Shown here in pieces: positions 12,631 to 61,446 of a DNA stretch of 64,000 nt. This DNA comes from a virus (taxonomy: Duplodnaviria > Caudoviricetes). How positions within the stretch are numbered: the stretch's first letter is position 1; each line of letters begins with the position of its first letter. A program made the position numbers and the translations under genes. Under the pieces are notes generated by a model. It worked only from the letters and a program-made list of their open reading frames with translations. It had not been told where the DNA came from and searched no databases. The stretch lies in IMG/VR virus record IMGVR_UViG_3300025789_000018. The stretch is one strand, 5' to 3'.

Positions 12631-12850
12631 ATTTTATACTCAATGAATAAGGTGATAGTTGTTTATCACAACAAGTCCGCCAGAAACAGACAGAATCAGA
12701 AACAGAATCTTGAGGCTCAAGTTAAACAAATCTCCTCGACGCCAAATGATGAACATAAAAATATTGACGATAACTGAGGCGATAATATAGAAATCAAACA
12801 TTGTCAGTCTCCTTGTTACTCATTCCTTATAACTCAGATCCGAAAAAATG

Positions 12851-13336
12851 TCAAGAAGAAATATCGATTTTAGAAAATCCCTCAGACAATGTTGGCTGTT
12901 GCATAGATTGTACCATACTGTCAAGAACAGTTTGGGGAATGTTTTTGCCAGGGCGACTGTTCAACCTACGTTCCCATTCTTCTTTCTCAGGAGTAGGAAA
13001 CACAACCGCTTCAATCTCATAACCATGATTAGGATGAAAGTTCTTAAGACGATCAAAGAACTTCTTACGAACCTTAGCGTTCAGGTTGGTACGATCAATA
13101 ACAATGGGATACTGCTTTGTTTCCACAGCACGATCAAACTCTTCCCACATGATACGTTCAGCAGCTTTGATGCTGTTAGCCCAAACATCATTATAGGTCT
13201 TGCCTGCGGCTTCTGCGATTTCTTCAACAATGTTATCGGTAGAGATAACAACACATTCGCCTTGAAACTCTTTTTCAATCCAAGTGGACTTGCCAGAAGC
13301 AGGAACACCAACGAGCATGATAATACGCTTAGTCAT
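12851..13336 (-). CDS. P-loop polynucleotide-kinase-like protein
   Basis: GVPASGKST Walker A, STD, VIDRTNL, RLNSR. Confidence 0.8.
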   Translation of the reverse strand: MTKRIIMLVGVPASGKSTWIEKEFQGECVVISTDNIVEEIAEAAGKTYNDVWANSIKAAERIMWEEFDRAVETKQYPIVIDRTNLNAKVRKKFFDRLKNFHPNHGYEIEAVVFPTPEKEEWERRLNSRPGKNIPQTVLDSMVQSMQQPTLSEGFSKIDISS

Positions 13337-13528
13337 CTCGAATCACTCCATCTATCTGCTACATTTTCAATATAGCTGATTATGAAAAAATGTCAATCGT
13401 TATTTTCCAACCGCTGCTTGATGGCAGCAATCACATCATCAAGGCATTCGTGCGAATCGGTGCCGTCTAACTCAAGCATGGCCTTTGCCCAATCAAGGTC
13501 ATCAAGCGCCATTTCCAAAAGTTCACGA

Positions 13529-14782
13529 TCAGTCATTGTACTTCACTCCCGGAAACCAAGCATCACGGATCGCTTCATACTTTGCCGTGCGACCAAGGTT
13601 ATTACGGATCGTTTTGCGAACGTCTTCGCCAATCTTCAGACCACTGATAATGTCGTTATCAAAGTTCTTGAAAATAATAGGACGAATGAAAGCATCAACA
13701 CCAACACTGTGCTTCGGATCGATTGCAAACGTTTTACGATCAATACCACGCTCACGGAGATATTCCAGCTTCATACCAATCAGCCTTACGCGACGGGCAA
13801 TATCAAAATGAATATTGCTCTCAAACTGAGTCAGCCGATCACGATCTTCGGCAGGCAGATGAGCCTTGATGTCATCCAGCTTTTCTTCCAGAATCAGTTC
13901 AACGATGTTGCGATCTTGCAGGATAGCTTCCTTCGCCTTGTGAATCTGGAGATACCAATGGCACTTCAACTTCAACATATGACCATCATCAAAACGAACC
14001 ACGAACCCTTCAAGGTCTTCCAGATCGTGGACGTATTCAAGGAAAGCCTTCATATCATTCTGTTCACCATAGTTAGTGAACTCAAATGCACGGACGACAG
14101 GGATATCCCAATCTTCAACATGCAATCGGTTGATACGACCATCACCGAACAGTTTGATATATTCGCCAGTATGCATATCGCGAAGAGCGGTGAGGATCAG
14201 TTGATCTTCCTTGTAGTCCAGAACAATGCGCTGCTTACGCGAACACCATTCAAAGATAGGAGTTACACCGTTGGCAATGCAGGAAGTAGCAAACTTCTCA
14301 TACTGAGGTTTGTTCTTGACGAACTCCTCAACAGGCTTTGCCACGTCGGTAGCACCCATCTTCGTGCCCCAGATCATTTGACCATTCACAATGAACGGAG
14401 CGATCATGGAACCATCCAGCTTCTCAAGGATAGCATGAGGGCGCGACAGATCAATGACATGATCCTGCGTCTCCTCACGCTCGTTCACATTGAAGAACTT
14501 ATGGAACGGGCGACGAATGATATAACCAGTTTCAGTATCAAAGATGATACCACGACATTCACGACGGATTGCTGCGGTGGGATCGTACTCACCAAAAGCA
14601 ATACGATTGAGAGGCTCCTGCCACTTCATATCAACTGGCACATCAGGAAACGTATCGGACATCATCACGTTGTAGTTGATGACCGTGTAGCCTTCCTTCT
14701 CAGCCACAACGAACTCGTAACGACCTTCAATAGCAGGCAGCACATCAGCGATGTTGGTGATGTGAGGAAACTCATAGTTCAT
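13529..14782 (-). CDS. RNA ligase 1 (T4 Rnl1 family)
   Basis: RECRGIIF, RRPFHKFFNVNE, EKLDGSMI, IFEWCS, EGFVV, LKLKCHWY. Confidence 0.9.
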   Translation of the reverse strand: MNYEFPHITNIADVLPAIEGRYEFVVAEKEGYTVINYNVMMSDTFPDVPVDMKWQEPLNRIAFGEYDPTAAIRRECRGIIFDTETGYIIRRPFHKFFNVNEREETQDHVIDLSRPHAILEKLDGSMIAPFIVNGQMIWGTKMGATDVAKPVEEFVKNKPQYEKFATSCIANGVTPIFEWCSRKQRIVLDYKEDQLILTALRDMHTGEYIKLFGDGRINRLHVEDWDIPVVRAFEFTNYGEQNDMKAFLEYVHDLEDLEGFVVRFDDGHMLKLKCHWYLQIHKAKEAILQDRNIVELILEEKLDDIKAHLPAEDRDRLTQFESNIHFDIARRVRLIGMKLEYLRERGIDRKTFAIDPKHSVGVDAFIRPIIFKNFDNDIISGLKIGEDVRKTIRNNLGRTAKYEAIRDAWFPGVKYND

Positions 14783-14835
14783 TGTTCAATCTTTCACTCT
14801 GCTACATTCTCACCATACACGATTCGTATTAAATG

Positions 14836-15945
14836 TCAAGAGGCATTATACCGCTGGATATACCATGGGCGTGCTACATTCGCAATAGCAGATCCCAGCT
14901 TCTTGGTATCAATCTGATTCGCAACGATGGTATCAGCTTCTTCCTTGACGACATCATTGTAGACCCAACGGATAAAATCGCCGAGAGACTTCATATCAAA
15001 GGGCAGCAGTTGTTCGCGAACCAGATTGTCTAGACCCTGTTCAAGACGCGATTCAGTGACAACTGATTCGATGAAAGCCTTCATGTTCTCTACTGCTTCA
15101 ACATCAACAGCAGCAAGAGTCTTGACCTTCGAAGAAGAATGCTTTTCGCCCTTGACTTTAAACCAAGTGCCCGAGTCGTTATAACCAGGAGTGACGCAAG
15201 TCCACACAACACCTTCGCCAATGCCGCTAACACCAAAGTGCTTACCGACAGGGCATTCGGCTTCAACAGCTTCCGTGATTTCGATCATCTTGTTCTGAGC
15301 GATTTCAGGAAAGTTGAAGTCAATGTCGATTTCGTAGGTAGGAAACTCATTGATCCAGTAAATATTAGGGACAGCCCGTTGACTCACTTCAATGAAACTT
15401 GGCATGTTTGCCCAGACAGAATCATCATCTGCATACATTTCTTTATATGCAAACACAACAAACATCTTGTCCAGACCAGTAAGAGCAACACCCTTTTGGA
15501 TATTACCACCGCACCATTCACCAAACAAAACTAGTTTTGTTGGCATTTTATTGGTCTTGCGCGGAGCAAACTGTTCCATAAGACCGTTGTGGAAACATGC
15601 TTCAAAATACTGAATAAAGATTGATTCGTGACTCTTAGCCCAAAGCATGAAGCCAGCATTGTCAGAAGTCAGCGACAGTTCACGTTCACGCGACTGATAG
15701 CTAATAGTGTCGGTGGCAACGTCATACACGATACCCGCGTTGGTACCATGCAGCTTGACAGTACCACGAAACTTCAGCGTAGGAAGCGGGCGAGAATGAT
15801 CATACACAGCATTGCCATCAGCATCCTTGCCAGCATACCGCGTATGGTTCTTGACATGATGAATCGTGGAACGGAACTGTTCAATAGAGGGAAACCTAAT
15901 CAAGTGCAATCTCCTTTTCTTTGCATGGCATATCTTCCGCACCAA
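14836..15945 (-). CDS. RNA ligase 2-family protein
   Basis: TVKLHGTNAGI motif I, LFGEWCGGNIQKG, GEGVVW, FKVKGEKH; true start may be a downstream TTG. Confidence 0.85.
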   Translation of the reverse strand: MVRKICHAKKRRLHLIRFPSIEQFRSTIHHVKNHTRYAGKDADGNAVYDHSRPLPTLKFRGTVKLHGTNAGIVYDVATDTISYQSRERELSLTSDNAGFMLWAKSHESIFIQYFEACFHNGLMEQFAPRKTNKMPTKLVLFGEWCGGNIQKGVALTGLDKMFVVFAYKEMYADDDSVWANMPSFIEVSQRAVPNIYWINEFPTYEIDIDFNFPEIAQNKMIEITEAVEAECPVGKHFGVSGIGEGVVWTCVTPGYNDSGTWFKVKGEKHSSSKVKTLAAVDVEAVENMKAFIESVVTESRLEQGLDNLVREQLLPFDMKSLGDFIRWVYNDVVKEEADTIVANQIDTKKLGSAIANVARPWYIQRYNAS

Positions 15946-16087
15946 AATCTACGATATAAGGAAAGGGAAGATAATCTTCCAGAACATCAACCACTGTTCC
16001 TACTTGATTTTCGTTAACAAGTCCAATATCTCGCGTGGCATACACCCTATCACCAATCTTAAACATAATCTTCTTCCTCATCTTCAA
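15896..16087 (-). CDS. Small hypothetical protein
   Basis: FKIGDRV..GTVVDV, SH3-like pattern. Confidence 0.5.
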   Translation of the reverse strand: MKMRKKIMFKIGDRVYATRDIGLVNENQVGTVVDVLEDYLPFPYIVDFGAEDMPCKEKEIALD

Positions 16088-16226
16088 TCAAGAAACCTTC
16101 ACCACCACAAACGACGCAAGTTTCACCATATTCTACACCACTGCCACCACAGACCATACAATCAATAGGATTGCAGCCACGACGACCATACGCATCTTCA
16201 TACACATCAGGATCAATCATAAAGAC

Positions 16227-16457
16227 TCACTTATAAAGTTCAAGAGGATGAACGACCGTCAGTTCTTCTTTGACATATAGCCAGAAGGGTTCAGGAAAAG
16301 GCGGAGCATATTCACGCCCATAGAACACTTTGATCAACTTGCCATCGACATCGGCGACAACACCAACGCGATCCTTGTTGGGCCAAATGCACGAGCGGAC
16401 CGAATCACCAACTTTAATCATAAAAAATCTTCCTTTCGCTGTCTGATAACTCATCAT
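16227..16457 (-). CDS. Small hypothetical protein
   Basis: IKVGDSV..GVVADV, SH3-like pattern. Confidence 0.5.
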   Translation of the reverse strand: MMSYQTAKGRFFMIKVGDSVRSCIWPNKDRVGVVADVDGKLIKVFYGREYAPPFPEPFWLYVKEELTVVHPLELYK

Positions 16458-16499
16458 ATCAAAAGGGAGATAAATGTCAACCAGTTTTTTCAGAAAAAA

Positions 16500-16811
16500 T
16501 CAGATATCGTCCAGATCGATAGCCTTGATGCCTGGATACTCTACATGATTGATTTGTTGGAACTTTTGTTCATCTGGCCATGCAGATAGGTAATCGTTAT
16601 CCTCGTTGAAGACCTTAAGATATTCTTCAGGAGAAACTTCGCGTCCACTAGAGATAACCTCACCGATATGATATTGTGACATTTCACGCCAGTCATCATC
16701 ATAGATTTCTGTCTTTACCGCTACTTCATTCTTAGCATCTTCAAGAGTATGTGCTTCTACCGCATAACGCATACGATGTGAAGAAACAGTTTCAATAATA
16801 AAGATTGCCAT
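16500..16811 (-). CDS. Conserved hypothetical protein
   Basis: VETVSSHRMRYAVEA..EMSQYHIGE pattern; co-oriented. Confidence 0.6.
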   Translation of the reverse strand: MAIFIIETVSSHRMRYAVEAHTLEDAKNEVAVKTEIYDDDWREMSQYHIGEVISSGREVSPEEYLKVFNEDNDYLSAWPDEQKFQQINHVEYPGIKAIDLDDI

Positions 16812-16813
16812 GA

Positions 16814-18509: not shown

Positions 18510-18510
18510 T

Positions 18511-18747
18511 TCACTTAGCCTTTCGGATGAGACGCGCAACGTCTTTGTCAAGAAAATCACCAGTAGTGTACCAAACACGCGATGCAACGCAGTCAGTCAC
18601 GGCCAGAGCGCATATGTCAGCGTTCGGGCATGTATCGCAGGGAATATCGCGAACGTTCTCTGGAGTGTTTAGGATCATCTTGGAAGCAGTGCAGACACCG
18701 TTCATGAAAGATGTGTCTGTTGAAACTGAAAAATAATCTGCGTTCAT
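18511..18747 (-). CDS. Small Cys-rich early protein
   Basis: PCDTCP..C..C; directly downstream of promoter at 18783-18801. Confidence 0.55.
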   Translation of the reverse strand: MNADYFSVSTDTSFMNGVCTASKMILNTPENVRDIPCDTCPNADICALAVTDCVASRVWYTTGDFLDKDVARLIRKAK

Positions 18748-18813
18748 GACAATCTCCGTTTTCTATTATGTATACCTAGCACGATTCGCGATTAATGTCA
18801 ACCGTATTTTCGA

Positions 18814-19014: not shown

Positions 19015-19379
19015 TATTCGCCCTCCACAAGCTTGAAGCCAAACGTATCAACCTCAAAAACTTCACCATCAATGATCATACGGTCACCGACCATAGACGA
19101 GCGATGACCCCACTTTTCGCCGGCGAAACAGTCAAGAGGCTTTACAACAATCACATGAGGATTGAAATCGGGATTCTCATAAAGTTCGCCCTTATAATCG
19201 ATCATTCGTTCCATCGACCAGGAACCACCGATGTTCTGAGTGTGACGATAGGCATATTCCAGAGCGTCTTGTACTCCCATATTATCAAACATGTAGCTTG
19301 ACAGATCAATCGTAGCCATATGCTCAAACCAACGATTGCCGAGACCGTCGCGATCAAAATGAAGAACTTGAACTTCCAT
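19014..19379 (-). CDS. Hypothetical early protein
   Basis: Downstream of promoter at 19421-19439; HRSSMVGD. Confidence 0.6.
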   Translation of the reverse strand: MEVQVLHFDRDGLGNRWFEHMATIDLSSYMFDNMGVQDALEYAYRHTQNIGGSWSMERMIDYKGELYENPDFNPHVIVVKPLDCFAGEKWGHRSSMVGDRMIIDGEVFEVDTFGFKLVEGE

Positions 19380-19690
19380 AACGAATCACCTTTTCTCTTT
19401 GCTACATTCTCACCATACACGATTCGTGAATAATGTCAAACGAAATCTTCGAGAGCCTTGACCTGAATCGGAGTGGCGATGCGAAGAAACTTCCGAATGG
19501 TTTCAGCGGCTAGCGTGTATTCTTGCATTTCTAGAAGTTCCATTTCTAGTAGAAGTTCATTAACGATTTCAGTAACAGTCATTTCAGTTTCCTGTATTAC
19601 ACATGGGTTTGCCGTCACGATCCAGACGAGGAAGCCCATAAAAGATTGTGAATAAAGCCAGAGGAATGCCGGCTGCATATAGAAAAGTTT

Positions 19691-20252: not shown

Positions 20253-20536
20253 CAGATAACCTTTCCATCAAGAACAAAGTAGTTGTGAGCGCCATGCTCA
20301 CCGTAATGAAACGACAGAAGACCATCATCTTCAAAAATCTGAAGAGGAGCGCGACCAGCAGCAATCTTGGCAAAATATTCGTCAACGCTGTAGTGCTTCT
20401 TCAGAACCGCAACAAACTTAGCCTTGTTGACTGGACCACGATGCTTGAAGCGGGCGACAAACTTACGTTCGCCGTTGTGGTTGTAGTGAAGGTATCCACC
20501 GTGATATTCGAAGTTGGCTTTTTCAAACTTGACCAT
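20252..20536 (-). CDS. Hypothetical early protein
   Basis: Downstream of promoter at 20579-20598. Confidence 0.6.
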   Translation of the reverse strand: MVKFEKANFEYHGGYLHYNHNGERKFVARFKHRGPVNKAKFVAVLKKHYSVDEYFAKIAAGRAPLQIFEDDGLLSFHYGEHGAHNYFVLDGKVI

Positions 20537-20599
20537 GACGAATCACTTTCTCTCTCTGTCTACTTTCTGACAATAGACGATTCGCGATAAAATGTCAAG

Positions 20600-23004: not shown

Positions 23005-23367
23005 TCAGTCTGCTTGCCGCGTGATAAAAGTCTTGCGGATTCTAGCTGGGCTGAAAAACTCATTGACAACATTGATAGCATCATCGATGTCATATTCACG
23101 GCAGGAGAAGATGTCAATATAACCTTCTCCTGTATGATCGTTGAAGTGTGCAATGATGTTGCTTGTCTCTATGAGTTGAATCACTGTCCATCCTTCTAGA
23201 TGGACTTCATTGTGACCGAAATGTAGAATCTGAGGCTCACCATAAGGAATCATGTCAATACGTTTGACAAGTTCCTTTACCCAATGCTCTAGTTTTTCTG
23301 GATTTGTGATTGAAGCGATATCACATCCGCCGCAATCCAAAAGTAGGTGATAACCCCAATAACTCAT
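23005..23367 (-). CDS. speD: S-adenosylmethionine decarboxylase-like proenzyme
   Basis: WGYHLLLDC, PYGEPQI, QLIETSNI.AH, YIDIFSC. Confidence 0.8.
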   Translation of the reverse strand: MSYWGYHLLLDCGGCDIASITNPEKLEHWVKELVKRIDMIPYGEPQILHFGHNEVHLEGWTVIQLIETSNIIAHFNDHTGEGYIDIFSCREYDIDDAINVVNEFFSPARIRKTFITRQAD

Positions 23368-23535
23368 TTACTCATCGTCTTCCATTTCTAATAGTTGGTC
23401 AATATCAAGTGTCCTGATCGCTCTATTTAGACGTTTTTGTTTCTTGTGTTCCCGATACTCTCGCAACTGAGAAGTATTGTTCACTTCGTCTTCTTCGTAC
23501 CAGTCCTTGAACTTCATGACCTTCTTCTTATGCAT
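23368..23535 (-). CDS. Small charged protein (55 aa, not in ORF track)
   Basis: MHKKKVMKFKDWYEEDE...; fills the gap between neighbours with coupled starts/stops. Confidence 0.55.
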   Translation of the reverse strand: MHKKKVMKFKDWYEEDEVNNTSQLREYREHKKQKRLNRAIRTLDIDQLLEMEDDE

Positions 23536-25479: not shown

Positions 25480-26439
25480 TTACTTATTTTTTAGAGATTC
25501 TAGAAGACCCGACCATTCCATTGCTTTAGTGTTCCAGTTGTATGTACGATCTGCTTGGATTTTCTGTAGATAAAGATCCTGTGCAATCAAGTCTCTTTGA
25601 TTACGCATAACGTTGATACCCTGTGAAAGAACCTGATAGAATGAGTTTGCATGATGATTCTTATCTTCGCTCCACTGATACATCCATGTCAAGCCCATAG
25701 AAGTTTCTGGTAGTGCTGCTAGATTAGGATGAATGCAGAGTAGACCAGCAGACATAGCTTCGATCAAACAGAGACAGGAGGTTTCTTTCCAGATTGAAGG
25801 ATATGCAAAGATGTCTGCGTTCAACAATGCGCTGCGCAAATCTTCGTTGCTTACAGAGCCGTGATAGTTAATCTGTGGATGCTGGCGACAGACTTCAAAC
25901 AGGTCTTCATACTGTTGATCGCGTTGTTCCCAACCATACAACTTGAATGATGAATAGACATCCAATGTGATGTTAGGATCGTTCTCGGCTAGCTTGATGA
26001 AGACTGGTACCAGAATATCTAGACCACGATGTGGAGTAGGTGTGTAGATCAATCGGATCTTTTTATCATCTACAGTCTTTGCTGTAGTGTCGATAGGTTC
26101 AATAGAGTTTTTAATGACAACAGAATCGCTATATGGTACACCACGAACGTTGTTGTATTGTTCCATCTGCCAGTTTGAAACGAAAACAAACTTATCAAAC
26201 TTCTTACGGTACATGGGATCAGAAAGTCGCGACGACTCTGGATCTTCTGGTAGATCGTGACAGTAGTAAATCTTCGTCTTGGTTTCGTCTAGTTCACGAG
26301 CGCGTGAGAAAACAATCTGTGTGTCTTCTAGAAGTTCACGAGGAACACCACCCGCATATAGACGTTCTTGTAGTAGTTCTGTACCACCCTTTGAGTTCTT
26401 GTTTAACTCATTACGTTCCATTAGGTCATGATTGCTCAT
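25480..26439 (-). CDS. GT-B (family 4-like) glycosyltransferase
   Basis: GGTE, HDLPED, IYTPTPHRGL, YPSIWKETSCLCLIEAMSAG. Confidence 0.85.
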   Translation of the reverse strand: MSNHDLMERNELNKNSKGGTELLQERLYAGGVPRELLEDTQIVFSRARELDETKTKIYYCHDLPEDPESSRLSDPMYRKKFDKFVFVSNWQMEQYNNVRGVPYSDSVVIKNSIEPIDTTAKTVDDKKIRLIYTPTPHRGLDILVPVFIKLAENDPNITLDVYSSFKLYGWEQRDQQYEDLFEVCRQHPQINYHGSVSNEDLRSALLNADIFAYPSIWKETSCLCLIEAMSAGLLCIHPNLAALPETSMGLTWMYQWSEDKNHHANSFYQVLSQGINVMRNQRDLIAQDLYLQKIQADRTYNWNTKAMEWSGLLESLKNK

Positions 26440-29129: not shown

Positions 29130-29610
29130 ATCTTGACGCCACGACGAATCAGTTCCTTTGCGATCAACTTTTCCATTCGATCAACCTGTTTGACAAGGCG
29201 ATCACTCAGCTTGTCACGGTTGCATTCGGAGAGGAAAAAGAGAGCCGCTTCAAGATCATCCGATGACTGAAAACGAATCACGATGGGGGCAAAGAGTTGC
29301 TTAAGATTCATATTGATTGCTCCACAAACTCACTGACTACATTCTTACCATAACAGATTCGAGTTATATGTCAAGCAGCCTTTTGTGCTTTGCGATATTT
29401 TTGAATCTGGCGATCAAGATTCTTTTGGTCGATGTAACCATCTTTACGAACTTGACCTAGATCATCCAAAACATTGAGAATATCGCTCACACCGTCGATA
29501 TTGATACCGTAGCTACGAATCACAGAGATAGAAGCAGATAAACTAAACATAACGAATCACCTTATATCTCACTGACTACATTACTGATAATACACGACTC
29601 GGGAATAATG

Positions 29611-30285
29611 TCAAGAGGGAAATGTGTATCCCACCAAAGATTCTAACTCTGATAAAGATTTTTCTATCAGAGCAGATCCTTCAACGTTGTCAGCCATATA
29701 AACTTTGATAGAGCGATCTTTGAGATAGACAACTTTGTAATACGCCGATGGAACGGGAATCCTACGTTCTCCAATACAAGTAGATGGATCAGTATAGATT
29801 GCACCAGTCACCACGTATTGCGTCTCCATCCCTCTCACCATCGCTTCCAGTTCTTTCCAGATAATCCTGTTTACATCTGGTAGTTGTGGTGTCATGTTGG
29901 TCATTAGAAATGTGTCGCGCATCTGGACTTCGTTTCCAGCGTCAGCAGCGGGTGTTAGATGCCCGCGATCATATCCACTGTCTGTATAGTCATCTGGTGT
30001 TGGTGACCGTTTCAGGCGAGGATCAGAGCAGAATGCGTCGTCTCTTTCCACGTGGTCATGTGGTGGCTGTGTCACTTCAGCAGATAGAATCGTTCTCATA
30101 TTCTTTTCATCATAAAGAACGAGATAGAACGAGTTACAAAGCACTGTGGTACCAGGCACGACAATAGCCTGACCGTAAGGCCAGACTTGATTTGCAGGTA
30201 ACGATGGAGGCAGCTTCCGCTTTGCTAGAAAAGAAAATGCAGCGGAAGCTAACATCCTAGGGATAGATAGCAACCGCTGCATCAT
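29611..30285 (-). CDS. DNA/RNA non-specific endonuclease (NUC family)
   Basis: YDRGHLTPAAD, TFLMTNMTPQ, NRIIWKELE, VPSAYYKVV. Confidence 0.9.
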   Translation of the reverse strand: MMQRLLSIPRMLASAAFSFLAKRKLPPSLPANQVWPYGQAIVVPGTTVLCNSFYLVLYDEKNMRTILSAEVTQPPHDHVERDDAFCSDPRLKRSPTPDDYTDSGYDRGHLTPAADAGNEVQMRDTFLMTNMTPQLPDVNRIIWKELEAMVRGMETQYVVTGAIYTDPSTCIGERRIPVPSAYYKVVYLKDRSIKVYMADNVEGSALIEKSLSELESLVGYTFPS

Positions 30286-32865: not shown

Positions 32866-32933
32866 TCTCCATTTTGTATCAGAGAGAAGCTTTGTCTCTC
32901 TATATTCCCATCATAGCTGATTCGTGGAATAAG

Positions 32934-33494
32934 TCAAGCAGTTTTGAGCCATTTCATAATGTTTTCAGGTGCAGTCTCGCCGTATGGATCATCATCGACA
33001 TTGTGACCAAAGCCAGGTTCAATGAACCACTTTTCGATCTTGCCGTTGTTTACCACTACAGCATAACGCCAGGAACGTGTGCCAAAGCCAAGATTTTCCT
33101 TATTCACTAGCATCGACATACCACTGGTAAATGTACCAGAACCGTCTGGAATGACCTTGACCTTCTGAAGCTGTTGTGACTTGGCCCAAGCATTCATTAC
33201 AAAGGCATCATTGACTGAGATGCAATATACATCATCAATGCCTAGTGCCTTGAAGTCTTTATAGTTTTCTTCGAAACCAGGAAGCTGATATGTCGAACAA
33301 GTAGGTGTAAAGGCACCAGGAAGAGAAAATAGAACTACGCGCTTGTTTGCAAAATAGTCAAACGAAGTCCTTTTTTCCCAACGATAAGGATTTGGTCCTT
33401 CAATCGAATCGTCACGCACACGAGTCTTGAATACTACGTTTGGAACGACTTCTGGTAGATACTCTTCGGGATCATACTGATGTGTCTGGTACAT
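32934..33494 (-). CDS. Peroxiredoxin (Prx5/redoxin family)
   Basis: LFSLPGAFTPTCS, CISVNDAFVMNAW, PDGSGTFT, RSWRYA. Confidence 0.92.
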   Translation of the reverse strand: MYQTHQYDPEEYLPEVVPNVVFKTRVRDDSIEGPNPYRWEKRTSFDYFANKRVVLFSLPGAFTPTCSTYQLPGFEENYKDFKALGIDDVYCISVNDAFVMNAWAKSQQLQKVKVIPDGSGTFTSGMSMLVNKENLGFGTRSWRYAVVVNNGKIEKWFIEPGFGHNVDDDPYGETAPENIMKWLKTA

Positions 33495-34650: not shown

Positions 34651-34707
34651 TTCATCTCCATCGTCTATGATCTGAACCTATCATGATTCGCGATGAATGT
34701 CAAGTGG

Positions 34708-34944
34708 TTAATTTGGCAACCGAAGGCCTTCAGGATTGATAGGCTCAAGGGTCTTGAACCCCCATTCGACACGACCATCTTCGAGGCGAGGAAGTTCTTG
34801 ATCTTTCTTCCACTTGAGCCAACCGTTTCCGTAACCGTTGAACCCCCAGTGGCGAGAGAACCACTGACCATCCTCGCGGACAGCAGCATGAATGTGACGG
34901 CCGTAGGAGTCATGCCCCATGAACGCTTCGATTGCCTTTGCCAT
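34708..34944 (-). CDS. Hypothetical early protein
   Basis: Downstream of repeat copy 1 promoter. Confidence 0.55.
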   Translation of the reverse strand: MAKAIEAFMGHDSYGRHIHAAVREDGQWFSRHWGFNGYGNGWLKWKKDQELPRLEDGRVEWGFKTLEPINPEGLRLPN

Positions 34945-35004
34945 AACGAATCACCTTTCTCACTAACTACATTCTCAATGTAGCTGATTCTGAAAAAATG
35001 TCAA
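34942..35004 (-). repeat. 63-bp promoter/RBS cassette, copy 1
   Basis: Identical to 35200-35262; contains TTGACA, two GANTC and CTACATT-CTC-AATGTAG stem-loop. Confidence 0.9.
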
Positions 35005-35010: not shown

Positions 35011-35202
35011 TCAGAAGCGTTCAGGACCGCCACAGATGCCTACCGCAAAGGGATACCAAGCGGTAATCGCAGCAATGGCAACGAACGGAATAGCGATGAA
35101 AAACTTAATCAACGCAATGGGATGCATAAAACTAACGAGTTCCTTGAACCCAAAGAGTTCTAGGGCAACCAGAGCGAATGCAATAGCAAAAATCTTAATC
35201 AT
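35011..35202 (-). CDS. Small membrane protein between the 63-bp repeats
   Basis: Two hydrophobic segments. Confidence 0.55.
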   Translation of the reverse strand: MIKIFAIAFALVALELFGFKELVSFMHPIALIKFFIAIPFVAIAAITAWYPFAVGICGGPERF

Positions 35203-35262
35203 AACGAATCACCTTTCTCACTAACTACATTCTCAATGTAGCTGATTCTGAAAAAATGTCAA
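35200..35262 (-). repeat. 63-bp promoter/RBS cassette, copy 2
   Basis: Identical to 34942-35004. Confidence 0.9.
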
Positions 35263-48144: not shown

Positions 48145-48630
48145 CTATCTCTTATGCTCTAGATCGTGTACGTACAAAGCTATAATAGCATAATGTATTA
48201 CTTTCATCAAGTCTTTTCTCCAATCGTCTGTAGATCCTTTTTGACCGTAACGACCAGAATACTTATCAACATTGCCTAGACAAAATCCTAGTCCACGACC
48301 ACGATCAATCGCAATTTCAGTTGATTGTATGTTGCCTTGCGCATAGTGTTCGCCATACGTCTTATCGATATAATCGGCGATTTCTTGAAGTGCTTTGTCT
48401 TCGTTGTATTTATAATCGATTTTTGATGGTTGTATTCTACGAAAAAACTCTTCATTAGTTTCTCCATTATATTGATTATGTTGTTTTTTCATTTCTTTAC
48501 GATTAAGTTCATCTGCCAAATATGTGTCGATTGGGCGTTTATACGGGCTGTCTGCTACCTGCCGTCTTACAAAGTCCTCCCAAGTTTCTATTCCAAGACC
48601 AACTGGATTTAATCCATCACTTTCACTCAT
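48145..48630 (-). CDS. DUF3310-like conserved phage protein
   Basis: YKYNED..YIDKTY..HY, FCLGNVDKY..RYG.KG, DLMKVIHY. Confidence 0.7.
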   Translation of the reverse strand: MSESDGLNPVGLGIETWEDFVRRQVADSPYKRPIDTYLADELNRKEMKKQHNQYNGETNEEFFRRIQPSKIDYKYNEDKALQEIADYIDKTYGEHYAQGNIQSTEIAIDRGRGLGFCLGNVDKYSGRYGQKGSTDDWRKDLMKVIHYAIIALYVHDLEHKR

Positions 48631-49079
48631 TCTTCACCTTCCATTTCATATTGCAGATAAATCACACCCGCTTCTTCAAGAATGTCTTTAGCGAGTTTTG
48701 TGGATTCTTTCCAGTGTTCAGGCAGATTCTTAGGAACTTCTGCAATAACAGTTCTGATGCCAACTTGAATGATACCTTTGCAACATTCAGAGCATACAGG
48801 TAAACCATACACGTATAGTTTGGCTCCGTCAAGAGATATTCCATTTAAACATGCATTATAGATGCAGTTCATTTCTCCGTGAACGACATACTTATACTTC
48901 GTTTCACGATCATTCAAGCGATCATCATCTTTGATACCTCTTGGAAAGCCATTGTATCCAGTTGCCAGGACATTTTGATTTTTTCCAATAGCAACAACAC
49001 CAATCTGTTTAGATGGATCTTTTGACCAAGTTGAGATATTCTTAGCCGTATCCAAATGACGGCGTGTCCACTTATGCAT
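48627..49079 (-). CDS. cd: dCMP deaminase
   Basis: SKDPS..IG, GYNGFPRG, VVHGEMNCI, PVCSEC. Confidence 0.9.
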   Translation of the reverse strand: MHKWTRRHLDTAKNISTWSKDPSKQIGVVAIGKNQNVLATGYNGFPRGIKDDDRLNDRETKYKYVVHGEMNCIYNACLNGISLDGAKLYVYGLPVCSECCKGIIQVGIRTVIAEVPKNLPEHWKESTKLAKDILEEAGVIYLQYEMEGEE

Positions 49080-49993
49080 TATACAGTTTCTTTCTTCAAA
49101 CGAACTAGTTTCATTCCGTAGTTGTCTACTTTAGGTAGTGACTTCAGATCAATGTCTTTCTTCATAATCAACTGGTTCTTCTTGAATGGACCATAGTCAA
49201 CGTAATGATGCCATCTACCGTAGCGAAATACCATGCGGGCCACGTCTGGATGCATGTCTACGAGCATTTGTGACTTGTTGATTGTTCCCTCTGGATTAAG
49301 CTGGCCATCTCTCCATTGAGCCTTGTCTTGTGTGCCTTCAGCATGATAAAACTCAGCAGTGTTACCACCTTTGACAGTCTGTGTTGCAGCTTTGCCTTGA
49401 AGAAAAGCATTAAACTGAATAGTACAATCACCATCTTTCAATACACGAAGGCAGATATCAGTATCTTCGTTGTAACGACCACGCCAGCGATGCTTACAAT
49501 CATTTCGGATAAGCAATGTGGAATAGATACGAGTGTTTGTTACAAAGGCAGGATACTTCTGATTTGGTGCAATAAAGAAACGATATTGAAAACCAGAGAT
49601 AGGAACATTCTCATATCGGTCAACAAAGTCTTCAGCAACTTTGAAGATCACACCAGATTCAACGCGAATACGACTGTTTTCATGGAGACGATAAAAGTCT
49701 GTGATGTTGTCGTCCATTACCCAGTGACTAGTTGCACCAATAGAGATAGAATGATCCCAGCACCAGTTTCTAGCGCGACCTGGTCCGTCGCCGTGATTAC
49801 TGAAAGGTGCAACTAGAAGAGTGACATACTCACGGATGCCAAAGTTGTCTAGTGCTTGTTCATACAAAGCTTCATCCTGTGGTTCAATCGCAATGTAATG
49901 TGGCACTTTCATTCGTGCCAATGAACGAGAGGTCAGCATTGATTCATGCCGACCTTTACTAATGATATAGACAGGATATTTTGGATTAGTCAT
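49079..49993 (-). CDS. TET/JBP-associated-type (GREB1-like) glycosyltransferase
   Basis: YPVYIISKGR, GPGRARNW, WVMDDN, IYSTLLI, RGRYNED.D, GGNT. Confidence 0.7.
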   Translation of the reverse strand: MTNPKYPVYIISKGRHESMLTSRSLARMKVPHYIAIEPQDEALYEQALDNFGIREYVTLLVAPFSNHGDGPGRARNWCWDHSISIGATSHWVMDDNITDFYRLHENSRIRVESGVIFKVAEDFVDRYENVPISGFQYRFFIAPNQKYPAFVTNTRIYSTLLIRNDCKHRWRGRYNEDTDICLRVLKDGDCTIQFNAFLQGKAATQTVKGGNTAEFYHAEGTQDKAQWRDGQLNPEGTINKSQMLVDMHPDVARMVFRYGRWHHYVDYGPFKKNQLIMKKDIDLKSLPKVDNYGMKLVRLKKETV

Positions 49994-50336
49994 CAGTTTC
50001 AATCCACCTACGAAGTGCATTTGCATCACGATCTAGCTTTGGATGCCAGATGCTTTTTGTTTTGATAGTAAGATGCTGATCGATCAACTTGGCAAACTCT
50101 TCATAGTCTTCTTTGTTACGGAAGCTTACGTAAATCTGTTTATATGGTGGATTAGTATCTTGCTTGAACTCGGGCATTCCTACCCAATGTTTCTTCCACT
50201 TTACATCATCTTGCTCCAAAGTTTCGTCTTCAGGCAAGAATGCATCAAGAGTAGATACACCATAAGAGATGTTCTTTGAGTCAATCAGACTTTCGTATTC
50301 TGTAGATTCATCAACTACAGGCTTATTGTCTTCCAT
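49986..50336 (-). CDS. Conserved partner of the glycosyltransferase
   Basis: WVGMPEF..IYVSF..EDYEEFAKLIDQ..T.KTKSIWHP; overlaps the GT start. Confidence 0.6.
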   Translation of the reverse strand: MEDNKPVVDESTEYESLIDSKNISYGVSTLDAFLPEDETLEQDDVKWKKHWVGMPEFKQDTNPPYKQIYVSFRNKEDYEEFAKLIDQHLTIKTKSIWHPKLDRDANALRRWIETDD

Positions 50337-56706: not shown

Positions 56707-57364
56707 TTTTCTTATTCTTTCTTCTCTCTAGCATCATTGCTTTGAATGCAGGATCTTTCCAACGCTCTTTTAGTTTGCTACCGTCAGAACCTCTTTTTGG
56801 TCTATTTTTCATTTTTTCTAGATATTCAGGATCTTTCCATTTTTCTTTCAACTTATAGCTAGCGTCTTGTCTCTTATCTATATCACCATTCACTTCCGAC
56901 ATGGTTGTGACAAATCTACTATAAAAAACTTCGTCTGAGTATCGGTTTTTCATATATTCTGTGTGTTGCTTATGTCTCTCTTCCGACCAACTCATATTCT
57001 GCACTCTAACGTTATATTCTTCTGGTGTTAGATTCTTCCATTGTTCTCTAAAAAATACACTAAGATTTTTGCTGTGCAATCTTTTGATCCATCCATACTC
57101 TTTATTACACAAACGTCTATCACTATTATGATACATTAGCATTGTTGTCGCATATATCAGCTTAGGATTATTTGGGTGCATTTTTATCAAAAGCTGATGG
57201 GCAACATAGTGTTCTTCTGGTGTTAGCTTCACAAGATTGCTGGAATCATCAGTGCCACCTAAACATTTAGGAACAATGTGGTGTTTTTCATAATAATCAT
57301 CTACATTGATGCATCTAGTCTTTCCACGTTGTACTAACTCTCCGTAGATTCTCGTGTAGTCCAT
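56693..57364 (-). CDS. MobE-like HNH homing endonuclease inserted in uvsW
   Basis: MDYTRIY..EKHHIVPKCLGGTDDSSNLVKLTPEEHYVAHQLL matches the T4 MobE pattern; TATAAGTA upstream. Confidence 0.88.
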   Translation of the reverse strand: MDYTRIYGELVQRGKTRCINVDDYYEKHHIVPKCLGGTDDSSNLVKLTPEEHYVAHQLLIKMHPNNPKLIYATTMLMYHNSDRRLCNKEYGWIKRLHSKNLSVFFREQWKNLTPEEYNVRVQNMSWSEERHKQHTEYMKNRYSDEVFYSRFVTTMSEVNGDIDKRQDASYKLKEKWKDPEYLEKMKNRPKRGSDGSKLKERWKDPAFKAMMLERRKNKKNETK

Positions 57365-58692
57365 ATAACTTTGCCTATCAATGTTGACGCCTGTATATTA
57401 CTTATACATTTACTGGTGTCAACATCATCATTTTCTGTAATGTTGTCAATTTTTTTCGTTGTACCATCCATTAGAGGTACGTTTTGGCCATCTTTTATTT
57501 TGAGAATGAAGTCATCAAAGTGTAATGATATCACGGTGTTTGTCTGTGTCTCTACCAGTTTACGTATTTCTTCGCGAACGTCACCGTCAACACCGCCATA
57601 GATGAAATGTATAGGTCTATCGCCAGCAGCATCATTGATTGCTTTATACAAGTCTTTGCCGTGCTTCTCCACGTATTGAAAAAGAAGTAGAGTATTACCT
57701 TTTAGAGATAGAGCAAGGTTCTTAACAAACTTGTTACGTGCTTGATTGCCAACAATGAAATCCATTTCCTGTTTGTAGTCATTGTCTTTGTTGACTTTAC
57801 GAACTTCTTCTGCGTACTTTAAGACAAGTATCTTAATCTTCAGTTCGGCCAAATGCTTCTGTTCTATTAGATCAGCCGTTGATGCAACACGCTTTGCTGT
57901 ACCAAATAGCCCTTCTAGTACCAGCTTATTCGTTTCAATGCCGTCTAGTGTACCAGTGAAACCAAACCGATGTTTGCAGTTGACAAGATTGTCCATGATT
58001 GCAGTAAGAGATTTAGCTTTGAAAAGATGACATTCATCACCCATTACCACATCATACTGTGAGAACCAAGACTTTGGTTGCTTATAGATTGACTGCCATG
58101 TTGAAATAGTAAACATAGCATTAGTCTTCTTATCAGCACCAGCAGTGATCTTGTGTACTAGTTCATCATAGCCATAAGACTTAAAATCATCTGCTAACTG
58201 ATGAACCAAAGAAATAGTTGGTACAATGATTAGAGTTTTTTTAGCGTAATACTGTGCGATCATATAAATGATCAATGACTTACCAGAAGCGGTAGGAGAC
58301 AGTAGGAGCGATCTTGTCTTACGTACTGCATGTGCCAGTGCAGCTAACTGGTAATCGCGTGGTGCGAACGGGAGGTTTAAGGATTGAGCAAAATCTTCAG
58401 CTTCCCTTAGTGAAAATGGTGTTTCGTTAAACTCATCACTAAACTGGACATCATATCCACGATTACGAGCGAATGCTAGAACGTTTTGAAACAATCCTGC
58501 ATAGACGGTCTTTGTCATCACATTGAACAAACGAATCTTGCCGTCCCATAGTCTTTGTCTGACTAGAGGATGAAACTTGGCATTTGGTACCATGAACGTA
58601 AAGTATTCTGACAACTCCATAGCTAGACCGCTTTCACAGTCTACTCTGATGTGTACCTCGTTTACCTTTGTGATGTATAATGTGTCTGTCAT
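57334..58692 (-). CDS. uvsW: UvsW helicase N-terminal fragment with a non-helicase tail
   Basis: RDYQ, SPTASGKS, IVPTISLV, GDECH, GFTGT, LLLFQYVEKHG; homology ends at ETQTN (about 57538). Confidence 0.92.
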   Translation of the reverse strand: MTDTLYITKVNEVHIRVDCESGLAMELSEYFTFMVPNAKFHPLVRQRLWDGKIRLFNVMTKTVYAGLFQNVLAFARNRGYDVQFSDEFNETPFSLREAEDFAQSLNLPFAPRDYQLAALAHAVRKTRSLLLSPTASGKSLIIYMIAQYYAKKTLIIVPTISLVHQLADDFKSYGYDELVHKITAGADKKTNAMFTISTWQSIYKQPKSWFSQYDVVMGDECHLFKAKSLTAIMDNLVNCKHRFGFTGTLDGIETNKLVLEGLFGTAKRVASTADLIEQKHLAELKIKILVLKYAEEVRKVNKDNDYKQEMDFIVGNQARNKFVKNLALSLKGNTLLLFQYVEKHGKDLYKAINDAAGDRPIHFIYGGVDGDVREEIRKLVETQTNTVISLHFDDFILKIKDGQNVPLMDGTTKKIDNITENDDVDTSKCISNIQASTLIGKVIWTTRESTES

Positions 58693-59141
58693 TAGTTTCC
58701 GTTTTTAAATCTCTGCCACTCAATATAGTTGCGAACTATGAACCCACGCTCTGTGACGTTCTTGATGATCGACTCAAGCAATGCGGTCTTTTCTTTTTGA
58801 TATGAAATCTTAAGTGTTAAGTTGATAATGTCTTGATCTGAATCGATATGCATCGGAATATCAGACTTAAGAATGGCGCGAGGATTTGGTTTCCATCCAC
58901 TTTCTTCCAGTGTTTCTCGGTCTAGTGTACCCATGAAGTATTCAAACTTCAGGTGATACAACTGCTTATAATCTGCTTCTAACTTCCGAAGCTGTAGTCG
59001 TTCGTTTGAGAATACCTTGTAGTATTTATGATGTAGTTTTGGGATATTTACTGCAACCTGATCAATCGCAGTGGTATCAATCTCTGAGTCTTCTGCCCAG
59101 AGGTCATAGATTTCTTCAAGCTTCATGAATATAAACCTCAA
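58692..59141 (-). CDS. uvsY: Recombination mediator UvsY
   Basis: IPKLHHKYY, RGFIVRNYIEWQRF; position between gene 3 and uvsW. Confidence 0.85.
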   Translation of the reverse strand: MRFIFMKLEEIYDLWAEDSEIDTTAIDQVAVNIPKLHHKYYKVFSNERLQLRKLEADYKQLYHLKFEYFMGTLDRETLEESGWKPNPRAILKSDIPMHIDSDQDIINLTLKISYQKEKTALLESIIKNVTERGFIVRNYIEWQRFKNGN

Positions 59142-59656
59142 GTTAAGCGGGTGTATGTGTACTCGCGATATGAAAACTCTGCTGTAGCCGTAACGTAGTT
59201 TACATCAGTTTCAGTGGAATCAAATCTGAAACCCGACAGTGAAATGGGGTTGACATCACTAAATGTGATCTTAAGATTTGGATTCATTGTACCATTCAAT
59301 ACAATCAAGTCCGCGTCTACCAGAACACCGAAACCGTTTGGTTGTGCATTCAATGCTGCATACTGATTGAAACTCTCTGGAGTACCAATACCAGTCATCC
59401 AGTCATAGATTTCAAAGTAGTTGTACATGTCTTCATCGATCTTGAATGTCAACGAGAATGTATCAAACGTCAATGGAGTACCTGGCAACTGCATCTTACC
59501 GAAAGGTGTCTGTTGATTTCTGCTAGTGCTTAGACTGATGCGAGGAAAATCAAAGCTTTGGGCAAAGTAGTCAACATTTGGATTCTTGGTGAGATTAAAC
59601 TTATAACCAAGCGGGCTGAGAAAGTCGATTGATACAGGTTGAGTTGGATTTGTCAT
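59138..59656 (-). CDS. 3: Tail completion / sheath stabiliser gp3
   Basis: FLSPLGYKF, F.IDEDM.NY.EIYDWM, FDSTETDV.Y.TA.A.F.Y; synteny. Confidence 0.8.
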   Translation of the reverse strand: MTNPTQPVSIDFLSPLGYKFNLTKNPNVDYFAQSFDFPRISLSTSRNQQTPFGKMQLPGTPLTFDTFSLTFKIDEDMYNYFEIYDWMTGIGTPESFNQYAALNAQPNGFGVLVDADLIVLNGTMNPNLKITFSDVNPISLSGFRFDSTETDVNYVTATAEFSYREYTYTRLT

Positions 59657-60276
59657 AAAACATCTTTCTTTTTGTATGGACCTCGTTTGATTCCAGTTCG
59701 CGCTAATCCGCTTTTTCTTCCTGCTTCATTCATCAATTCTTTTGGTCTAGATTTTTGTGCGATAGACTGTTTTTCTTTCCAAACATCACCTCTATTTCTT
59801 GCATTTTCCCTAAACGCGCATAGAGTAGCTTCCGAATACACTCCAGTTTTTCCTTTATTCCAGGGCTCTTTACCAAGTAGGATTTTAGATTTATTATCTT
59901 TCCATTCCTGAGTACGCTCGTATTTGCCCATTTTTGCGCTATTAGATTTAGGCTTCCTCATCTTCTGCCTGGTCTCTTCGGTGTGTTGCCATCCTGATAT
60001 TCTGCCGGCGCTTATATTCTCTACGATCAGATTGGCCCATTCTTTAGATTCTACTATATTATTATCTTCGGAAAACTTGATTGCAAAATCTCTAGCTTCT
60101 TCCTCGTCATAAAACGAGAACAACTCTAACGTTTCTTGTTTAGAATTGTGTTTTTTTAGATGATCTTTCCAGTAGATTCCAGAACCCGTATATGATATGG
60201 GATCGGATCCCATTGTTTTACCGAAATATCTCAGTTCGCAGTGTGTGCATTTTTTCACATAAAGATGTATTGCCAT
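59653..60276 (-). CDS. GIY-YIG-like (Seg-type) homing endonuclease
   Basis: IHLYVKKCTHC.LRYFGKT, YTGSGIYW, HTEETRQKM, PWNKGKTG; TATAAATA at 60304-60311. Confidence 0.8.
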   Translation of the reverse strand: MAIHLYVKKCTHCELRYFGKTMGSDPISYTGSGIYWKDHLKKHNSKQETLELFSFYDEEEARDFAIKFSEDNNIVESKEWANLIVENISAGRISGWQHTEETRQKMRKPKSNSAKMGKYERTQEWKDNKSKILLGKEPWNKGKTGVYSEATLCAFRENARNRGDVWKEKQSIAQKSRPKELMNEAGRKSGLARTGIKRGPYKKKDVL

Positions 60277-60345
60277 GCTGTTACCTATCTGTTTTTACTT
60301 CACTATTTATATCAGATTCACCGTCAAATGTCTAGAGTTTTATGC

Positions 60346-60373
60346 TTGACATTTTATGCGAATCGTGTAATAT
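60346..60373 (+). promoter_or_regulatory. Early sigma70-type promoter with GANTC in the spacer (representative of 12 or more)
   Basis: TTGACA-ttttatgc-GAATC-gtg-TAATAT. Confidence 0.8.
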
Positions 60374-60402
60374 GATGATATAGACAGTGAAAGGACAAGA
60401 CA

Positions 60403-60753
60403 ATGAAGCCACTCATTCACGCTAAAGTTTCGGTAAAACGTCATGGTGGTTGTGTAGAAGATTATCTGCCCATTCACAACTTTATCGACTCATCAAAGAT
60501 TTCTATGCCAGATGTACGCCACCGTGCTATTCTGCATAGTTCATTTGGATGCTATCTCGCTGAACAGATGTTCGGTACATACATCACCAATGCTCAAGGC
60601 AAAGATGTGTCTGTACGCGACATTGCAGAAGAACACATTCAAGAAGACTTGGGCTTCATTCCCACTATTGAAAACTGGTTAGAAGAGATTCCACTAAAGC
60701 CTTGGATGTCTGGTGGAGCAAAGAAGCGTCGTGAAGAAAGGCTAGTTGACTGA
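60403..60753 (+). CDS. Conserved phage protein (DUF6915-like)
   Basis: HAK.SV..HGG..EDYLPIH.F.DSSK..PD.RHRAILHSSFG, VRDIAEEHI.EDLG. Confidence 0.65.
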   Translation: MKPLIHAKVSVKRHGGCVEDYLPIHNFIDSSKISMPDVRHRAILHSSFGCYLAEQMFGTYITNAQGKDVSVRDIAEEHIQEDLGFIPTIENWLEEIPLKPWMSGGAKKRREERLVD

Positions 60754-60832
60754 TGACTTATAGTAATCAAGAAATCTATGAAGTTACTCCCAAAGAAGTT
60801 GTGATTACCAAAACTGTTTATGAAAGGATTAA

Positions 60833-61411
60833 GTGATGAGTGCTTTTGATAATATTACCAAGAAGATCGCTGAAAAGAACTCTGAAATCGATGCGCTTAA
60901 GAAGGCGTACATGAAGGAACTTCAGTCGTCATTCAATGAAATCATCAAGTTGTTCTTTGAGGAATGCCCCAAGGTTCAGGCTGTTGTTTGGTCGCAGTAC
61001 ACTCCATACTTCAACGATGGTGAAGAATGTGTATTCAGCATCAACGAACCGCATTTTATTGTTGAAGGCTTCGATCCTGATGATCTGAAGGATCCTTATG
61101 AATACGAAGATGATGATGAATACAAGACTTTGCAGTATAGCAGTTATCAGACTCTTGAAGAAATCCTGATTCGTTATAAAAATGAACTTGCTAAGCCACA
61201 TGTAAGCGATTGGGTTAAAGGATACTATCCAACGTATATTGCTCAAGTCGAAAAGCAGTTTGAAGAATTTCCTGAATACCACAATAAGATTTTGACGTTT
61301 GTTAAGTTGCTGAACGATAATGAAGATGTACTGCAGGAAGTCTACGGCGATCACGTTGCTGTCTACCTGACTCCAGAAAAGGTTATCGTTGAGGAATATA
61401 GTCACGATTAA
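60833..61411 (+). CDS. Conserved hypothetical protein
   Basis: WSQYTPYFNDGEECVF. Confidence 0.7.
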   Translation: MMSAFDNITKKIAEKNSEIDALKKAYMKELQSSFNEIIKLFFEECPKVQAVVWSQYTPYFNDGEECVFSINEPHFIVEGFDPDDLKDPYEYEDDDEYKTLQYSSYQTLEEILIRYKNELAKPHVSDWVKGYYPTYIAQVEKQFEEFPEYHNKILTFVKLLNDNEDVLQEVYGDHVAVYLTPEKVIVEEYSHD

Positions 61412-61446
61412 GGGTTGACATTTTTAGCGAATCGTATATAGTGGGA

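Follow-up and report, generated by a model that had tools for sequence, protein, structure and literature searches.

Introduction

Transcription control by CcrM and GcrA is a textbook case of epigenetic regulation in bacteria. CcrM methylates GANTC sites in Alphaproteobacteria, and GcrA, a sigma70 cofactor, is present in Alphaproteobacteria other than Rickettsiales. To our knowledge, this type of control has so far been known only for chromosomal cell-cycle genes. Here we describe a GANTC box that occupies a fixed place in the spacer of nearly every early promoter of a T4-like phage, as found in a 64,000-nucleotide stretch of viral DNA (IMG/VR record IMGVR_UViG_3300025789_000018; Duplodnaviria, Caudoviricetes), hereafter called the window. 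The box may be the docking site of a GcrA-type cofactor, and this reading is weighed below against its alternatives.

In Caulobacter crescentus, GcrA boxes follow the consensus TGATTCG, or more broadly YGAKTCK, and are either "narrowly centred around -20" or located at +2 to +30 (Haakonsen 2015, PMC4647560); they were also placed at -20 +/- 1 and -30 +/- 2 in the spacer, or at +5 to +30 (Wu 2023, PMC9976885). The GcrA promoter analyzed by cryo-electron microscopy reads TTGACA-N7-GAATC-N5-TATAAT on the non-template strand, and the downstream boxes of PmipZ read AGAGTCG and TGAGTCG on the same strand (PMC9976885). A phage precedent for engaging the GcrA system is given by the phiCbK-like Caulobacter phages, which carry GcrA homologues (PMC3556154). 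Our literature search found no paper on GANTC or GcrA boxes in phage promoters, and the papers on phage Melnitz and on pelagimyophages predicted early promoters with BPROM only.

A GANTC box in the early promoters

The original prediction had named twelve GANTC sites in promoter spacers of the window, and all twelve were present. They are given below with the promoters that carry them, together with three further members of the promoter family. Minus-strand promoters are referred to in the text by the coordinate of their -35 element.

14812 to 14839, minus strand: early promoter, TTGACA-N8-CGAATCG-..TATGGT, GANTC at 14821; upstream of an RNA ligase 1-like gene (13529-14782).
18773 to 18801, minus strand: early promoter, CGAATCG, GANTC at 18783, N8 from the -35 and 4 nucleotides (nt) before TAGGTA; upstream of an open reading frame (ORF) of 78 amino acids (18511-18747).
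19412 to 19439, minus strand: early promoter, CGAATCG, GANTC at 19421; upstream of a 121-amino-acid ORF, with TGATTCG in the leader (19383-19387), 3 nt before the ATG.
20570 to 20598, minus strand: early promoter with a 17-nt spacer, GANTC at 20579, N9 from the -35 and N3 from TATTGT; leader box at 20540-20544.
29347 to 29374, minus strand: early promoter, CGAATCT (the sole window site off YGAKTCK), GANTC at 29356; upstream of a 64-amino-acid ORF.
29587 to 29614, minus strand: early promoter, CGAGTCG (the sole site with G at the centre), GANTC at 29596; leader TGATTCG at 29554-29558.
32910 to 32937, minus strand: early promoter with TTGACT, CGAATCA, GANTC at 32919; upstream of a 116-amino-acid ORF; a strain variant reads CGAATCC.
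34675 to 34703, minus strand: early promoter, CGAATCA, GANTC at 34685, at N8 and 4 nt before TAGGTT; upstream of a 156-amino-acid ORF.
34977 to 35004, minus strand: early promoter, AGAATCA, GANTC at 34986; leader TGATTCG at 34948-34952; upstream of a 78-amino-acid ORF.
35235 to 35262, minus strand: early promoter, AGAATCA, GANTC at 35244, a near-identical copy of the 35004 cassette; leader TGATTCG at 35206-35210; the 63-amino-acid ORF behind it lies just after the gp41 helicase gene.
60346 to 60373, plus strand: early promoter, CGAATCG, GANTC at 60360; upstream of a 116-amino-acid DUF6915 ORF (60403-60753).
61415 to 61442, plus strand: early promoter, CGAATCG, GANTC at 61429; GATTCGCTATG precedes the first ORF, whose start at 61530 is about 73 nt past the predicted start site.
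13369 to 13396, minus strand: promoter of the same family, degenerate box TAATC; leader TGATTCG at 13340-13344; upstream of a kinase-like ORF of 161 amino acids.
12827 to 12854, minus strand: related promoter, broken site GATCT.
16453 to 16480, minus strand: promoter of the same family, TTGACA-N16-TATGAT with a similar start region and no GANTC, an internal negative case.

The motif TTGACW-N8-GANTC occurred 11 times in the window versus 0.55 +/- 0.69 times in 100 dinucleotide shuffles (shuffle maximum 3); the twelfth promoter (20598) has N9 in place of N8. Because selecting promoters by the motif itself would be circular, a 45-column matrix was built from the promoters with the seven columns around GANTC set to zero. 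This masked matrix recovered 14 cassettes in the window, of which 12 carried GANTC 3-4 nt before the -10 element, one carried TAATC and one (16480) had no site; in its alignment the N9 promoter was shifted by one. The density of GANTC was 18.1 per kb within the 14 cassettes and 3.8 per kb outside them. The two sites that had been called broken are indeed so, reading TAATC at the promoter with its -35 at 13396 and GATCT at that with its -35 at 12854.

Every cassette carries TTGAC(A/T)-N16/17-TAnnnT, that is, -35 and -10 hexamers of the sigma70 type with a spacer within 16-18 nt. The likeness of the cassettes goes beyond the box: TTGACA is followed by a run rich in T, AAT-G/A-TAG stands in the start region about 4-10 nt past the -10 hexamer, the leader is rich in purines, and the ribosome-site context is often shared. 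By sequence, they fall into two sub-families, GAATCGTG-TAT and GAATCAGC-TA. The ORFs behind them encode 53-417 amino acids and lie 20-80 nt downstream. As with T4-type early promoters, many strong sigma70-like promoters with a T-rich stretch after the -35 are thus set amid small early ORFs. A reading of the GTG before the -10 as an extended -10 (TGn) was rejected: the TG abuts the hexamer without an extra base, and the other sub-family has AGC at this place.

Position and conservation of the box

Relatives of the phage came from two kinds of search. Searches for its own genome beyond the window yielded fragments of 22-62 kb, and the distant relatives G003 (117 kb), G004 and G005 were found by a pattern scan of IMG/VR, whose listed matches were mostly single chance occurrences and whose use lay in locating G003-G007; DNA identity to G003, G004 and G005 is about 66-73% where alignable. 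The clade catalogue holds 43 distinct promoter variants.

On the non-template strand the box reads C-GA(A)TC-G/A, and the boxes of the window comprise CGAATCG (six), CGAATCA (two), AGAATCA (two), CGAATCT (one) and CGAGTCG (one). Eleven of the 12 window sites have A as the centre base on the promoter strand, and the other has G; among the clade variants the centre is A in 40 of 43, T in two and G in one. In 16-nt spacers, the box lies N8 from the -35 and N3 from the -10. The fixed spacer position that had been predicted held as a register, with one refinement: promoters with 17-nt spacers mostly keep N3 to the -10 and not N8 to the -35. Such N9/N3 boxes occur at 20598 in the window, at 23399, 22336 and 20040 in G003 and at 6169 in L097. 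At the exceptions 18801 and 34703, the box stays at N8 and stands 4 nt before TAGGTA and TAGGTT, respectively. Transcription usually starts 7 nt from the -10 hexamer. If the start is the seventh base past the -10, a conserved purine after T, the centre of the box would lie at about -18/-19; if it is the conserved A two nucleotides further, the centre would lie at -20.

Across the cassettes of the window, letters change widely in the -10 and in the seven spacer positions ahead of the box, and the G, A, T and C of the box are constant to the same degree as the -35. The same was found between orthologous promoters of sister strains, in which letters of the flank, the -35 and the -10 differ and GA.TC is kept (for example, CGAATCA versus CGAATCC at 32937, and AGAATCA with TACATT versus CGAATCA with TATATT at 35004). 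The box precedes the -10 in six of seven clear early promoters of G003 and in three of six of G004, amid spacer letters unrelated to those of the window. Orthologues of promoter 29614 in L011 (13078) and L097 (944) have lost the spacer box, with CGAGTCG changed to CAACTCT, and in one of them the leader TGATTCG has become AGATTCG; therefore, absence of the box is tolerated at some promoters.

Among the 16 palindromes of the form XYNY'X', GANTC is the most or second most depleted, with observed/expected ratios of 0.82 in the window, 0.73 in G003 and 0.75 in G004. It is also low in the relative L091 and in the Caulobacter phage Cr30 (0.85; 1-50000), and not depleted in the relatives L092 and L093. 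Judged from these counts, GANTC is avoided genome-wide and retained at promoters. Because the box is kept at about 70% DNA identity with different spacer letters while GANTC is depleted elsewhere, it is, as far as comparison of genomes can tell, a selected element, neither a product of chance nor inherited baggage.

Resemblance to GcrA promoters

Like the GcrA/CcrM promoters of Caulobacter crescentus (PMC4647560, PMC5887438, PMC9976885), the phage cassettes combine sigma70 -35 and -10 elements with a spacer GANTC, whose predicted position is near -20. The flanks agree as well: 11 of the 12 window boxes fit YGAKTCK, versus 31.5% of the 238 GANTC sites outside cassettes, and 35 of the 43 clade variants do so. 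Both the cryo-electron microscopy promoter and the phage arrangement TTGACA-N8-GAATC-N3-TAnnnT have GAATC on the non-template strand. A second GANTC is present in the leader of 25 of the 43 variants; 17 of these have the exact word TGATTCG on the non-template strand, at about +19 to +27. The window has seven leader boxes versus 2.0 expected (P = 0.004), which lie at about +19 to +27 in six or seven cassettes. The optional second box of PmipZ (+2 to +30, YGAKTCG on the non-template strand) has a counterpart past the predicted start in these phage leaders. Core, flanks, both positions and both orientations thus appear to agree with the GcrA rules within 1-2 bp, and this resemblance is the main argument for a GcrA reading.

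There are also differences from the known systems. Unlike Caulobacter GcrA promoters, the cassettes come from a virulent phage with 41% G+C in its DNA, their hexamers are like those of E. coli, and the box stands in nearly every early promoter, whereas only a subset of promoters in Caulobacter has it. In phiCbK-like phages, the regulator gene is on the phage and the promoter architecture is undescribed; the window phage has the cis-element, and a GcrA gene was not found in the fragments searched.

Predicted host range of the clade

The polymerase of the window shares only about 50% identity with those of cultured cyanomyoviruses, the sole DNA-level match among 50,697 phage records is 743 bp of the helicase gene of the Methylophilales phage Melnitz (70.6%), and identical or near-identical contigs came only from freshwater, lake and sediment metagenomes; therefore, the phage is uncultured. 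The best host hint in the window is a peroxiredoxin gene (AhpC-TSA/Redoxin; 32934-33494, minus strand), which looks like a fairly recent host-derived auxiliary gene. Its product is 62-74% identical to cellular peroxiredoxins of Hyphomicrobiales and other Alphaproteobacteria. Of the best 80 named matches among those listed for GTDB species genomes, 78 were alphaproteobacterial, mostly from Hyphomicrobiales; those listed from this order include Roseibium, Mesorhizobium, Nitratireductor, Aminobacter, Rhizobium and Ensifer.

The test was then repeated on 401 evenly sampled Pseudomonadota genomes. All 19 sample genomes with a peroxiredoxin match of at least 62% had a GcrA gene, versus 105 of 401 overall, and the 50-58% tiers were mixed. 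Matches to the phage transfer RNA (tRNA) for Gln, 81-90% identical, were in GcrA-bearing genomes in eight of eight cases, and those to tRNA-Lys in seven of eight; matches to tRNA-Leu were mixed, and neither of the two matches to tRNA-Val was in a GcrA-bearing genome. The peroxiredoxin gene is also found in L093, a relative without the box. We take the peroxiredoxin and the tRNAs as marks of gene ancestry and not as proof of the present host; they moderately favor Alphaproteobacteria as the host range of the wider clade. The alphaproteobacterial host of the original prediction was thus favored by the peroxiredoxin, tRNA-Gln and tRNA-Lys genes, whose nearest counterparts are in GcrA-bearing genomes, and no direct host link was found. 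A search of prokaryote genome contigs for relatives of the phage polymerase, as would come from mis-binned or single-cell host links, found none; sequencing runs that contain the phage were freshwater, lake and sediment metagenomes only, which gave no host clue, with no RNA runs among those listed; and the ESM Atlas gave phylum-level or viral neighbors only for the peroxiredoxin and the deformylase. A ferritin-like gene was rejected as a host marker, its best matches being only 30-38% identical and uninformative.

A proposed GcrA/CcrM reading

We give a GcrA/CcrM-type reading of the box a probability of about 0.5. The cassettes are host-sigma70 early promoters with a third element besides TTGACA and TAnnnT, located 3 (sometimes 4) nt before the -10. 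In the spacer, this element would give a GcrA-type cofactor, bound to sigma70, a place to dock. The cofactor would read N6-methyladenine in GANTC, a mark set by the host, which would be an alphaproteobacterium with a CcrM-type methylase. It would stabilize the open complex at box-bearing promoters, acting by activation rather than repression, and transcription of the early genes would depend on how the injected DNA is methylated and on whether the infected cell contains GcrA. Searches for a CcrM-type N6_N4 methylase (PF01555) and for GcrA (PF07750) found neither in the seven virus fragments G001-G007, all of them fragments (G003 is estimated to be 71% complete), which does not imply absence from the whole phage; given no methylase there, the phage would rely on the host CcrM to mark its replicating DNA.

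The original prediction that early transcription is wired to this system was supported in so far as the promoters are sigma70-type early promoters of a T4-like phage and have a selected box of GcrA-like position, strand and flanks. Several observations, among them the two genes missing from the fragments, weigh against it. A fixed GANTC is absent from early promoters of Cr30, a Caulobacter T4-like phage (1-50000), whose early intergenic regions have, unlike the window, a repeated (G/C)TTTACTT...TA(T/G)AGT promoter without it. TTGAC-N9/10-GANTC occurs at chance level only in the Sinorhizobium phage phiM12 and the SAR11 phage HTVC008M. The hosts of Cr30 and phiM12 are GcrA-bearing. The closer relatives L091-L093, with polymerases 65-69% identical to that of the window, use promoters of the type TTGACAttttt...TAGACT, mostly without the box; therefore, the element belongs to a sub-clade. 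Compared with the box of the solved GcrA promoter, the phage box is shifted away from the -35 by 1 bp and towards the -10 by 2 bp. Its centre base is nearly always A, which would fit an oriented reader and is not required by plain CcrM recognition. The leader box also stands at a constant 3 nt ahead of the start codon, and the one at 61522, at about +73, tracks the ATG rather than the start site. Modified bases in the phage DNA, which is probably hypermodified to judge from its glycosyltransferase and dCMP deaminase genes, could change recognition of the box. Finally, the host hints come from a single auxiliary gene and two tRNAs, which are weak markers and may be relics of an earlier host.

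The same motif was at chance level in S-PM2, Syn9 and Melnitz; therefore, there is no cultured-phage precedent for the architecture among the six phages checked. Its absence from the cyanophages and the OM43 phage is at least consistent with a GcrA reading. The TTTACTT...TATAGT promoters of Cr30 are presumably like the GTTTAC early type of T4.

A more far-reaching version of the GcrA/CcrM reading, which we put forward tentatively, is that the early promoters of an uncultured freshwater T4-like clade have come to need, almost without exception, a host epigenetic reader as cofactor, so that efficient transcription would occur only when GANTC carries N6-methyladenine from the previous host and the cell is a GcrA-containing (S-phase) alphaproteobacterium. 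If true, this would be a known mechanism in a new form, with the whole early programme of a virulent phage under a host epigenetic sigma70 cofactor. Infection would pass a cell-cycle and methylation gate, and takeover by the phage would be tied both to the cell cycle of the host and to how the phage DNA had been methylated before. The motif would also become a sequence-only predictor of alphaproteobacterial hosts for uncultured phages, and the cassettes would be compact natural promoters with methylation-dependent output.

Alternative explanations

The alternative that survives best, which we consider rather unlikely, is that another factor uses the box with no role for methylation and that the likeness to GcrA is coincidental. 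It might be a DNA-binding protein, encoded by the phage or carried in its virion, that boosts early promoters or shuts them off later on, or else a lineage-specific contact of the spacer with the host RNA polymerase or sigma factor. The element is indeed lineage-specific, being mostly absent from L091-L093 and absent from the six cultured T4-like phages checked. Its centre is A in 40 of 43 variants and its 5' flank is nearly always C; therefore, the recognized word resembles an asymmetric CGAATCR rather than a generic GANTC. T4 offers a comparison, in which the MotA box (TGCTT core) takes the place of the -35 element at about -30. The MotA/AsiA middle promoters likewise have an extra fixed element for a sigma70 cofactor that selects phage promoters; the phage cassettes differ in keeping TTGACA/T at -35 and in having their extra element near -18/-19. 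No member of the MotA or AsiA families was found in the precomputed Pfam lists for the window genes, and for a clade without this known early-to-middle switch in those lists, a spacer operator would be a simple shut-off device. Where there are two boxes, they lie in inverted orientation on either side of the -10 and the start, at a distance of about 40 bp, as operators of dimeric repressors often do. However, under this explanation the box would have to match the site of a well-characterized reader by chance in core, flanks, position and strand, where GANTC makes up 4 of 1024 pentamers and YGAKTCK flanks are present at about one-third of GANTC sites here. The genome-wide depletion of GANTC is easier to explain if GANTC is meaningful to the host, a site of 5-7 bp is short for a dedicated repressor, and no candidate binding protein was identified. 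Should the reader nevertheless be something other than GcrA, the cassettes would remain evidence of a strongly selected third element, added to the two sigma70 hexamers in promoters of a large aquatic phage group, and of a factor yet to be found.

It is improbable that the box has no function and that one promoter cassette was copied by duplication or recombination with GAATC as inherited baggage. Near-identical copies do exist (35004 and 35262 in the window; 7339 and 7888 in L179), there are the two sub-families, and start regions and leaders are conserved too. Yet spacer and -10 letters vary while GA.TC is as invariant as the -35, the box is retained at about 70% DNA identity amid unrelated spacers, and it keeps its distance to the -10 when the length of the spacer changes.

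Leader boxes and RNA-level signals

The leader word is tied to translation starts as well as to promoters. GATTCNNNATG (GATTCG-NN-ATG) occurs 15 times in the window versus 4.4 expected; among these starts are 13334-13344, 19377-19387, 20534-20544, 29548-29558, 34942-34952, 35200-35210 and 61522-61532, and the word overlaps the Shine-Dalgarno spacer. Because it is fixed to the start codon, and lies at about +73 in the 61522 case, the leader box may act as a signal for translation. The candidates are an operator for the phage RegA translational repressor (PF01818) and a second box of the GcrA type, and leaders with GAUUCGNNAUG may be RegA targets. In one relative the leader word is inverted (GAATC), and in another both orientations stand side by side, which means that the DNA palindrome was kept and the RNA word was not. 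An RNA hairpin between spacer box and leader box was considered and rejected, the fold energies not being below those of shuffles.

The weakest explanation, that the spacer CGAAUCR pairs with the leader UGAUUCG in read-through transcripts and masks the ribosome-binding site, or that the leader word is a RegA-type operator, is very improbable: the two words are complementary over 6-7 nt, their pairing is the minimum-energy fold in three of six cassettes, the excess of GATTCNNNATG and the start-bound 61522 copy would suit it and the phage encodes RegA, but fold energies are no better than those of shuffles (z -1.7 to +0.6), 18 of the 43 variants have the spacer box without a leader box, an RNA word should not be inverted or found in both orientations, the constant spacing between spacer box and -10 is left unexplained, and the RegA version accounts for the leader box only.

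Phage genome and further observations

The window encodes a T4-like replication and recombination set consisting of the family B polymerase gp43, UvsX, the gp41 helicase, the gp44/62 clamp loader and the gp45 clamp. Further T4-like genes are those for RegA, UvsW, UvsY, gp46/47, RNase H, two RNA ligases and PhoH, and there are many small ORFs and at least seven tRNAs.

In the cassettes 35004 and 35262, the -10 (CTACATT) and the start region (AATGTAG) form a perfect inverted repeat of 8-9 bp (34975-34995 and 35233-35253, minus strand), which dominates the predicted RNA or DNA fold; these near-identical cassettes precede different small ORFs. The promoters of L091 (69% polymerase identity; 3528, 5592, 15507 and 15808) read TTGACAttttt-N-TAGACT/TAGTCT, and their -10 is a small palindrome, TAGNCTA. 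At L091 5592 and L092 16302, GA(A/G)TA stands at the place of GANTC in the window phage.

A gene for an S-adenosylmethionine decarboxylase of the SpeH-like type (PF02675) is located at 23005-23367 on the minus strand; such a gene was noted as peculiar to freshwater SAR11 myophages (PMC7029224). At about 48145-50029, also on the minus strand, a gene of the TET-associated glycosyltransferase family (PF20691), a dCMP deaminase gene and a DUF3310 gene lie side by side, and a second glycosyltransferase gene is found at 25480-26439.

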